From Octopus vulgaris (lineage: Eukaryota), in contig OX597817.1 of NCBI GenBank assembly GCA_951406725.2, positions 78,120,001 through 78,184,000 of the forward strand: 64,000 bases of DNA, read 5' to 3'. A program made the translations under genes and the position numbers. The notes beneath the pieces were generated by a model. That model was given only the letters and a program-made list of their open reading frames with translations, was not told the origin of the DNA and did not search any database. This document shows positions 45,036 through 48,194 of this stretch, piece after piece. Positions within the stretch are counted from its first letter, which is position 1. The number at the start of each line of letters is the position of its first letter.

Positions 45036-45793
45036 TATGTACAGTATATATTCTTTTATTCTTTTGCACTTTTACGTGTTTCAGTCATTTGACTGTGGCC
45101 ATGCTGGAGCACCACCTTAAAGGGTATTTTAGTTAAAGAAATTGAGAACAGGACTTATTCTTTCTAAGTCTAGTACTTATTCTATCAGTAATTTTTGCTG
45201 AACTGCTTAGTTACTGGGACATATACACACTGACATCAGTTGTCAAGTGGTGATGATGGAGGTAGCAAAAATGAATGAACACAGACCCAAAGTCACACAC
45301 ACATATATATACATTTATATATATATATATATATATTCTTTTACACTTTTCTTTTTTATTTGTTTCAAGCATTTGACTTTGGCAGTGCTGGAGCACCACC
45401 ATATATATATATATATATATATATATATATATATATATATGTATGTATATATATATATATATATATATATATATATATATATATATATATATATAATAAA
45501 AATGGTAAATAATTTTCCTGTGGTTTTTCATGTAACCAACAATTATTTACCGGTAAATTTCGGTATGTAAATACGACAAAATAATTGTCAAGACCTTTGT
45601 AAGGTTCAGTATATAGTAAAGAAAAATAAGTTGGCTAGCAGCAAGCTGTTTCGCCTCATACCGAAGGAATTAGAAATGGCAGTCAAAGACCGTTTTTCCA
45701 TTTCTATAAGTAGAGATTCCAAAAACGAAGGCCCTTGTGGCTCACATACACAAAACCGGAGTGGCAAATATACAAATTCAGTCACTTACCGTT

Positions 45794-45866
45794 AATAGCG
45801 AACACGGTGTTTCTGGATCACAAACATATAAAAAAAGGGTGAGTTTGAATTCCGTCATCAGCGCTA
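45794..45866 (-). ncRNA. Type I hammerhead ribozyme, minus-strand copy
   Basis: Reverse complement of the motif at 46428-46500. Confidence 0.75.
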
Positions 45867-46427
45867 TATTCGTTAGATTTATCAAAGGAATTCAAACTCA
45901 CCCTTTTTTTATATGTTTGTGATCCAGAAACACCGTGTTCGCTATTAACGGTAAGTGACTGAATTCGTATATTTGCCACTCCGGTTTTGTGTATGTGAGC
46001 CACAAGGGCCTTGGTTTTTGGAATCTCTACTTATAGAAATGGAAAAAACGGTCTTTGACTGCCATTTCTAATTCCTTCGGTATGAGGCGAAGCAGCTTGC
46101 TGCTAGCCAACTTATTTTTCTTTACTATATACTGAACCTTACAAAGGTCTTGACAATTATTTTGTCGTATTTACATACCGAAATTTACCGGTAAATAATT
46201 GTTGGTTACATGAAAAACCACAGGAAAATTATTTACCATTTTTATTGTATTACCATGTGGATTCCTCATTCCATTACGATTACCCAGAAGGCGCGCATGG
46301 CAGAATTTTGGAGGGAAAATTTACGTTCCCAGTCGTTGCTTGGTTTTAACATCTGCGCACTTCCCCCACTATCTGATGTCGCTGGGTCAGAAGTGAGGGC
46401 TGGTGGCATTTGATAAAGCTAACGAAT

Positions 46428-46500
46428 ATAGCGCTGATGACGGAATTCAAACTCACCCTTTTTTTATATGTTTGTGATCCAGAAACACCGTGTTCGCTAT
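46428..46500 (+). ncRNA. Type I hammerhead ribozyme, plus-strand copy
   Basis: Stem I ATAGCG/CGCTAT; core CTGATGA (46434-40); stem II GGA..CAAAC/GTTTG..TCC; GAAA (46482-85); minimal stem III ACAC-c-GTGT; predicted cleavage after GUU (46494). Confidence 0.8.
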
Positions 46501-48194
46501 TAACGGTAAGTGACTGAATTCGTATATTTGCCACTCCGGTTTTGTGTATGTGAGCCACAAGGGCCTTCGTTTTTGGAATCTCTACTTATAGAAATGGAAA
46601 AAACGGTCTTTGACTGCCATTTCTAATTCCTTCGGTATGAGGCGAAACAGCTTGCTGCTAGCCAACTTATTTTTCTTTACTATATATATATATATATATA
46701 TATATATATATATATATATATATATATATATATATATATATATATATATATATATATATATTAGAAAAATGTTACAAAAAGAAAATAGAAACTACATGTG
46801 GAAATGTAAGGGGAAAGTAAGAAGGAAAATAAGATAAAATTCACATTGGAAATCAAAAAAAAGTGAAGGCTTTTTATGAAAAGTAGTGATAGATATATAC
46901 AATTAGATGAACTGAGGTAGGAATAAAAGCAATAAAAGTCATTATTGTGAATTGCTAAAGAGATTCCAAGGCATACTGGTTTTGTAAAATTTCTGATCAC
47001 TGCTTTGAATGCACACCAATTACCAAATGGTGTTGGGTCTTCTAGTCCCTGGGTAAAAAGATTATGTAAATGGAAGGTAAGTAGTTCTGGATTTGGTGCA
47101 ATTAGGGTAGATATAAACCTGTAATGTGAATGGTGCATGGGATGTATGGAGGTTAGTGGTATTAATTGAAAGGTTAGTGGTGTTCTATGTTAAGTCATGT
47201 GTTCATATTGAGTTGTGGAAGATATTTATTGATGAAAATTGCTTCTTTATTCATTCTTTGCTGTCTATATTGTGGGTGGCAGATTTGTTCTTTGAGGAGA
47301 GTGATTCTTCAACAGAGTGATATTCCTGTTTGGCCAATATAATGATTACCATACCACCACCCACAATACAGACAGATACAGGTCAGTGAACATATAAAAA
47401 GGTGTGCTAGAAACCTTAATCCTAATTTCCTAATTTTCCCCTTCTATCAATGTTCACAGAACACTTCAGTACAGCAAAGAATGAATAAAGAGGCAACTTT
47501 CATCAATAAATATCTATATAAAGGGCTTCTTTCAGTATCTGTCTACCTGATCCACTCACAAGGCTTTGGTTGGTCTGAGGCTATTGTAAAAAGCACTTGC
47601 CTGGCCAAGGTACCATGCAGTGAGACTGAACTCAGAACCATCTGATTGGGAAGCAATCTCCTTTCTACACTGCAACTTTTATATCTCTATATATATCATT
47701 ATAATGGAATAATTACTATGTGTAGAATATATTGTAAGAGGCCATCCTCATACACCAAAAGAAACTTAAAATCAACAACAGGAAGCTAGCTGGTTGCTAT
47801 AGCAACACCTTTCCATGCATGTCCACTTCACACATTCTTGCACACACACACACATTAGAAACATTCGTTAATTTCTTGAAAATGGGGTCATAACACCGAA
47901 ATATTGAATACAAGCACCATCATCATTATCAATGCTTAATGTCCATTTCCATGATAGCATGGATTGGCTAGCTTGATAGGAACTGGATGCCCTTCCTAAT
48001 TCCAACCACTTTATAGAGTGTACTGAGAGCTTTTTACATGGCACCAGCACTCATGCTAATGCTTATTGTGTTGCACCTTAGTTTTAGGATATCAATTCTA
48101 TTGGGTTGGGCAGGCATTCTTGAGTACAGCAATGTGCCACATATCTCAGTGCATATTTTGGAATATATATTCTTTTACTTGTTTGAGTCATTTG

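Follow-up and report, generated by a model that had tools for sequence, protein, structure and literature searches.

A dispersed family of 555-nt hammerhead repeats in Octopus vulgaris, probable non-autonomous Penelope-like elements

The element described here lies in a 64-kb window (the whole stretch of DNA that was analysed) between two (TA)n target tracts, at 45401..45490 on its left and 46687..46761 on its right, and the sequence bears out the original prediction of (TA)n on both flanks. If the repeating unit is numbered q1-555 from 46132 to 46686, the insertion consists of two head-to-head arms. The inverted arm (45491..45886, minus strand) reads q278-555 and then q1-119, ending with a 119-nt segment (q1-119; 45491..45609, minus strand) that we read as a tail and with its 3' end at what we term site 2 (q119); an inverted copy had been predicted here and is present, but it starts at 45491 and not at 45495, 4 nt of ATAT microhomology having been omitted. 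The direct arm (45887-46686, plus strand) joins a 5'-truncated unit (q311-555; 45887..46131) to a full 555-nt unit (46132..46686), the 3' end of which is at site 1 (q555, ...TTTACTATATA). Its partial tandem structure with a 555-bp period and few differences between copies was correctly anticipated: the repeats 45887-46131 and 46442-46686 are 555 nt apart and differ at 2 of 245 nt, and comparison of the inverted arm with the 3' copy over 278 nt revealed 2 substitutions and 1 indel. The truncated unit does begin at 45887, 2 nt past the CUGAUGA box, which it lacks, while retaining the GAAAC-stem III-GUU portion of the motif (site ending at 45939). The two arms meet asymmetrically (q278 versus q311). 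With 800 nt in the plus arm against 396 nt in the minus arm, simple fold-back of a cDNA fails to explain this copy. The monomer is also ORF-less as proposed, the longest plus-strand frame being 80 aa from stop to stop and a Pfam search with three stop-to-stop peptides from the element giving no match; by reading frames, Pfam and tblastn, the family likewise has neither protein-coding capacity nor LTR structure. One peptide in the 46195-46410 frame, EFWRENLRSQSLLGFN, resembles a GIY-YIG C-terminal motif, but was discarded as such on account of its lack of a Pfam match, of genome matches that are family copies only and of the different C-termini of the sampled PLEs. The Rfam miRNA matches in the window were set aside as the palindrome itself. 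A consensus-like splice donor motif, G|GTAAGT, occurs at 45953(+), just past the hammerhead, and an acceptor-like CAG at ~46284(+), past the tail; both are possibly the relic of a PLE intron, and no joint spliced from 45953 to ~46284 was seen in the contigs of the sequencing runs. Farther right, positions 48170-48600 hold ~12 copies of a degenerate ~32-nt tandem repeat.

Scanning both strands of the 64-kb window retrieved two hammerhead motifs only. The one at 46428-46500(+) is a complete type I motif in the order ATAGCG / CUGAUGA (46434-40) / GAAA (46482-85) / GUU (to 46494) / CGCUAU, with its predicted cut after GUU 46494 (q363), and its complete mirror occupies 45795..45867 on the minus strand, one base away from the 45794-45866 first given for it, with the predicted cut between 45801 and 45800. 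CUGANGA, GAAA, NUH and stems I-III in type I order are all found in the window motif, whose stem I has 6 bp, stem II is GGA/UCC with a long loop and stem III has 3 bp within a near-palindromic sequence, ACACCGTGT. The claim of intact hammerheads on both strands therefore holds for the core but not for the base of stem II, where position 10.1-11.1 is a C46441·A46481 mismatch, nor for recognition by Rfam: the recommended Hammerhead_1 check of the window turned up no hammerhead, and the RF00163 covariance search of the window motif gave no match at E up to 10. This base pair is absent from all young copies, being C·A or, in many of them, A·A. The hammerhead-constrained fold has -8.5 versus -11.7 kcal/mol for the free one, which contains no hammerhead. 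Frequent variants fall mostly at N7 (U/A/C), 10.1, the stem III loop and H17 (U/C), or are a G·U in stem I; among core changes, U4C in 15 older units departs from this pattern. Both the mismatches (C·A or A·A at 10.1-11.1) and U4C may slow or kill the ribozyme. In the part of the hammerhead literature consulted, U·U is a tolerated natural mismatch at 10.1-11.1, with C·A unmentioned, and U4C reduced activity in vitro yet supported a viroid in vivo (PMC3088659). Conservation of core columns was not higher than that of random columns (P 0.30, with the core column list shifted by one in its GAAA part), and the search that collected many of the family copies demanded part of the hammerhead core. 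Stem III occurs as ACACCGTGT, ACACGGTGT, ACACGTGT, ACATATGT and ACATGT, five variants that form no hairpin alone and self-pair with -4.6 to -10.3 kcal/mol, self-complementarity being kept through double (compensatory) changes in ACACGTGT, ACATATGT and ACATGT. Because stem III is palindromic and self-pairing, these variants point to a predicted double-hammerhead action. The monomer itself folds stably, both as a linear (z -4.6) and as a circular molecule (z -3.7).

The window element belongs to a family. In the 2.8-Gb genome (227 contigs), a search with the unit gave 124 matches from 40 of 1125 candidates that were scored, and the hammerhead motif had 144 exact matches against 0 for the control, in line with the multi-copy status that had been supposed; further motif counts reached 401 exact matches and 776 with up to 3 mismatches (controls 0). 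There are at least 100 near-identical copies of the 555-nt repeat. Full-length matches are 97-99% identical and copies are dispersed over at least 20 large contigs, so that the family is young and dispersed; older subfamilies at 88-92% identity also exist. From 160 loci, a sample biased to long copies and first-listed contigs, we derived 102 insertions: 53 head-to-head, 48 in a single orientation and 1 complex beside an N gap. Two loci (L005 and L012) have a common junction, probably by later duplication. The inversion is genuine and no assembly artefact, as it recurs in 53 of the 102 insertions at different junctions. Divergence over 82 loci is 0.7% inside single arms, 0.9% from arm to arm and 2.5% from locus to locus. 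Tandems reach ~4.5 units, with a longest arm of 2524 nt, and 22 of 150 arms carry at least two complete motifs in the same orientation, the window copy not being among them. No PLE ORF is collinear with the element in any of the 102 insertions, and tblastn with three PLE proteins matched just 4 of the family loci, each through a separate fragment outside the element; the copies examined are thus free of a PLE ORF, as had been expected of a non-autonomous element.

Two fixed internal positions with a spacing of 119 nt, q555 (site 1) and ~q119 (site 2; 46250 in the window), are where the sense 3' ends fall; this is read directly from the insertions, unlike the mechanism by which an RT would start there. 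The cut site q363 coincides with none of the 154 3' ends. Most of the minor ends are also on TAT/ATA, and 143 of the 154 adjoin (TA)n, which confirms the suggested targeting; a caspase paralog with an empty site indicates that one insertion went into a pre-existing (AT)n. The 5' ends are random, the 9 of 154 at the cut site not differing significantly from the 5 expected (P 0.07), and clustering there was set aside at this value. Site 1 is the end of 36 single-orientation insertions (n=48), site 2 that of 8, and the other 4 end elsewhere. The head-to-head pairs (n=53), in turn, comprise 34 that combine site 1 and site 2, one with site 1 twice, none with site 2 twice and 18 with one canonical and one other end. 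One arm per site is therefore the arrangement in 34 of the 35 pairs with two canonical ends (P ~1e-9 under even odds), the lone exception having, as judged by eye, a deleted tail. According to the available accounts, PLE insertions carry a 30-40-bp tail at one end only (PMC8557442, PMC3846280), this tail is the stretch separating two internal points of RT initiation, cutting and extension affect both strands of the target, and the PLE protein is predicted to be dimeric (PMC11167929). Since one-end tails and two RT starts are known from PLEs, the 119-nt segment is, by analogy, the tail of the 555-nt family and a Penelope-type signature of two internal RT starts, and the strict pairing of the ends (34/35) suggests one RT start per target strand. 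A one-end tail, an inverted 5'-truncated copy and a partial tandem, all traits of PLEs, are found together in the family; the tail signature and the (TA)n targeting support the earlier proposal of a non-autonomous element mobilised by a PLE RT/GIY-YIG.

At diagnostic sites, opposite arms disagreed in 19/1928 cases and units of one arm in 22/2663, against 21% for different loci; on sequence grounds, both arms of an insertion derive from one variant. The template cannot be a linear self-cut monomer, to judge from the arms, because 117 of 150 span the cut site, and would instead be a circle or an uncut multimer. This qualifies the original prediction of copying from a ~555-nt, possibly circular RNA. 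We regard it as likely that the window element is an insertion of a dispersed non-autonomous PLE (a non-LTR retrozyme), copied in trans by a PLE RT/GIY-YIG into nicked (TA)n, the template being either a circle or an uncut multimer of the RNA. Transcription would take place at loci bearing two hammerheads on one strand, in one case likely as read-through out of a caspase gene copy, and the transcripts would self-cleave, likely as a double hammerhead in view of the palindromic stem III. The monomer would then likely be ligated to a circle, as cyclic contigs (see below) and the analogy with RtcB ligation would have it (PMC7229834). A PLE protein would likely bind the conserved cassette (a box A/box B helix plus a hairpin) and, if the partly consulted work in PMC11167929 can be extrapolated, nick both (TA)n strands, the RT likely initiating internally on the RNA, at two sites with 119 nt between them and with UA microhomology as an aid. 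A single cDNA would yield a 5'-truncated tandem, and two cDNAs, one per site and on opposite strands, would through twin initiation and joining of their truncated ends yield the head-to-head architecture that is directly visible in the insertions. The window copy itself is probably a dead-end product and not a source of circles, because it has one full hammerhead per strand.

The same non-autonomous PLE could also have been copied only from uncut linear read-through RNA of tandem arrays, the hammerhead being a weak or dead passenger and any circle a by-product; we take this as a serious possibility somewhat short of probable. The mismatch at the stem II base, the missing Rfam match, 5' ends that are not significantly piled at the cut site (9/154 versus 5 expected, P 0.07) and an apparently expressed variant (L003, see below) without daughters all agree with it, and the part of the in vitro study of a PLE consulted reports the hammerhead to be dispensable and uncut RNA the main template (PMC11167929). 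However, 5' truncation should on such a template shorten the arrays at each generation, yet multi-unit arms occur in the young as well as in the 88-92% subfamilies, and the homogeneity of units inside one insertion, the compensatory changes in stem III and the cut-to-cut alleles of the cyclic contig equally speak against it. It is improbable that the copies are pseudo-LTR fragments shed by an autonomous PLE: whereas the tail, the inversion and the (TA)n bias are PLE traits and the donor-like and acceptor-like motifs flank the cassette, perhaps as those of a PLE intron would, the unit runs into another copy of itself over as many as ~4.5 periods without an ORF, and a PLE ORF is collinear in 0/102 insertions and lies upstream of the cassette in 0/60 sister loci (two families). 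Still harder to credit is an amplification at the DNA level (satellite, rolling-circle DNA or extrachromosomal circle) or a palindrome made by the assembly. The tandem form, and the fact that the runs with cyclic contigs are RNA by guess only, would suit it. Against it stand the spread over at least 20 large contigs with fixed 3' and random 5' ends, the arms in the window, which differ in sequence and meet asymmetrically (q278 versus q311), and the 53 different inversion junctions recorded. Copying in trans by a PLE from circular or uncut multimeric RNA remains our preferred reading.

The end cassette, which a PLE protein would likely bind, comprises box A (TTCGGTATG; 46076..46084, plus strand), predicted to pair across site 1 with box B (CATACCGAA; 46174..46182, plus strand, inside the tail) and conserved in sister families, and a hairpin (GGTAAATAATT/AATTATTTACC; 46190..46237, plus strand) immediately ahead of site 2 (46250). 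The flanks of other loci contain diverged elements that end in this same cassette, and an alignment of six sequences (two from one family) shows both the box A-box B pairing and the hairpin. With a structure derived from this same alignment, 89% of the alignment cells pair, a value reached by 2/500 shuffles, and 6/30 pairs change on both sides, which 41/500 shuffles equal. Box A/box B and the hairpin are a candidate RT-binding fold conserved across families. Three sister families have type I hammerheads with a self-complementary stem III, a cut-to-box A distance of 140-145 nt versus 136 in the 555-nt family and, where measured, periods of 562/563 and ~600. Palindromic stems III characterise both family C (loci L249, L255 and L269; 1759 first-look candidates) and family D (L275, L276 and L286; 2058 first-look candidates), the latter having the canonical G-C pair at 10.1-11.1 and repeating every ~600 nt. 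In 21 of 30 family C loci the inverted arm stops at site 1 opposite the tail-bearing arm, which the query had selected. A second hammerhead tandem family (L161:2203-3621, plus strand) has a 562/563 period and U·U at the stem II base, and lies upstream of a caspase copy on the opposite strand. Rfam Hammerhead_1 recognised one sister family at E 0.003 and 21.6 bits, below its gathering score of 34. A PLE ORF running into the cassette was found in none of 60 loci from two sister families.

The 555-nt family has no RT + GIY-YIG ORF and is hence not an autonomous PLE. PLE machinery does exist in this genome, as a young, intact PLE (L224-L243) is present in many copies in (TA)n, with ~5.1 kb, a 781-aa RT + GIY-YIG frame, a hammerhead-like motif of core UUGAUAA (U3-A8 variant), a ~40-nt tail and a 73-nt cut-to-end distance; it has no DNA in common with the unit. 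The other sampled PLE families (best 150 of ~6000 candidates scored) lack the cassette and share no DNA with the unit either. Hunts for the partner through a Neptune-like fragment as query, the GIY-YIG Pfam profile, and cassette motifs together with sister-family cassettes found none, and those through loose-end motifs gave 0 matches each. The window holds a degenerate PLE fragment at 9467-10000(+) with a Cys-rich linker, which we take to be Neptune-like, and a GIY-YIG remnant at 47247-47513(+), 560 nt to the right of the element, neither of them collinear with it.

Four sequencing runs were examined on one unit, two of which (X1 and X2, from two studies) are RNA by guess only. In each of these the unit appears as one 585-nt contig that runs through the cut site back to its start with no host flank, that of X1 being 555 nt plus a 30-nt end overlap; the genomic-DNA-like X16 gave 562 short pieces of the unit, and X6 11 mixed pieces. 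Such contigs carry no information on strand or covalent closure, and an assembler that trims tips could turn a tandem transcript into an apparent cycle; a lookup of sequencing runs showed no RNA run with the unit among those listed. When X1 was compared with the 102 insertions, L003 alone agreed at 8/8 sites, the next best at 6/8, and a 26-nt signature of the L003 variant occurs once in the genome. L003 has two full hammerheads 555 nt apart. The monomer bounded by their predicted cuts shares with X1 all 8 substitutions and the two indels, X1 being without the 2 L003 alleles that lie outside the cuts; X2 differs from this monomer by one extra substitution. The element lies on the same strand as an intronless caspase copy and starts 35 nt past its stop codon, and no AATAAA or ATTAAA follows that stop until ~1 kb past the element. 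The L003 copy behind the caspase gene may well yield circular RNA. Daughters of the L003 variant, which is apparently expressed, were not found in the assembly. L003 and L161 belong to a tandem pair of intronless caspase genes (G000:C5:54369833-54376250). In the downstream, L003-bearing copy the assembly shows a net frameshift of one base; its paralog, the upstream copy at a distance of 4.5 kb, keeps an intact ORF together with the empty (AT)n site. Both ORFs agree completely over their C-terminal ~400 nt and differ in their 5' parts, thereby suggesting gene conversion between the copies. One may speculate, on a rather doubtful footing, that at least four ribozyme-circle families parasitise a PLE via one conserved RNA fold, a dimeric RT/EN priming on the same circle at each side of the fold, on two target strands, and rolling round it, and that the caspase 3' UTR serves as a circle factory in which tandem hammerheads would cut the mRNA of that caspase paralog off its poly(A) tail. 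Among the pieces of X6, record 20 is a 393-nt contig ~87% like q101-298 that carries a go-back joint and may represent a smaller cyclic unit of related sequence.

In L1 twin priming, two primers act on opposite strands and generate head-to-head inversions, and in SINE-LINE parasitism a non-autonomous RNA borrows an RT. The 555-nt family differs from both in that its two primers would act at fixed sites of a repeating unit and in having no poly(A) tail. As judged from the parts of the published accounts at hand, autonomous EN+ PLEs (Poseidon of Anolis, PMC11167929; Adineta Penelope, PMC3846280; Neptune/Naiad, PMC8557442) likewise form partial tandems with an adjacent inverted 5'-truncated copy, and have a one-end tail, AT-rich or (TA)n targets and a hammerhead upstream of the RT start region, whereas our family has no ORF and a tail of 119 nt instead of 30-40 nt. 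Its ends fall on UA microhomology, while the Anolis enzyme started without target homology in vitro (PMC11167929), and Naiads, unlike our family, are described as devoid of canonical hammerheads (PMC8557442).

By sequence criteria the family is a non-LTR retrozyme, and likely a non-autonomous PLE, with no previous description in the literature found: titles and abstract openings yielded none of it or of cephalopod retrozymes, and the supplements of the two retrozyme papers (Cervera & de la Peña 2020, PMC7229834; Li et al., bioRxiv 10.64898/2026.07.22.740005) may list related families. The latter already makes the case for non-LTR retrozymes as non-autonomous PLEs. From what could be consulted of both, the metazoan elements are likewise ORF-less, low-GC tandem type I units that are dispersed, fold stably as monomers and coexist with PLEs, a circle being predicted for our family. 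The axolotl Amex2 retrozyme, which cleaves better as a dimer, also has a mismatched stem II base, U·U in place of the C·A or A·A seen here, and self-cleavage occurred in 1/9 predicted retrozymes, the other 8 staying uncut (bioRxiv 10.64898/2026.07.22.740005). At 555 nt the unit is longer than those of invertebrate retrozymes (~170-400 nt) and inside the vertebrate range (51-972 bp); short arrays in (TA)n and frequent head-to-head inversion further distinguish it, and the two-site tail and the conserved RT-binding cassette candidate do not feature in those retrozyme descriptions as consulted (PMC7229834, bioRxiv 10.64898/2026.07.22.740005). Both retrozyme papers call it an open question by what route, and from which template, animal retrozymes are mobilised. 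Our family provides unusually clean genomic footprints that tie a retrozyme to the two-start mechanism of PLEs (34/35 end pairing), together with a candidate RT-binding fold conserved across families and a named source locus for a probable circle; the existing design of the in vitro PLE assay can test footprints, fold and source locus directly. Type I hammerhead repeats unrelated to those described above were also noticed, at L290:2617 and 2971 and at L280:1945, one of them with 354-nt spacing and a CCGACGA core.
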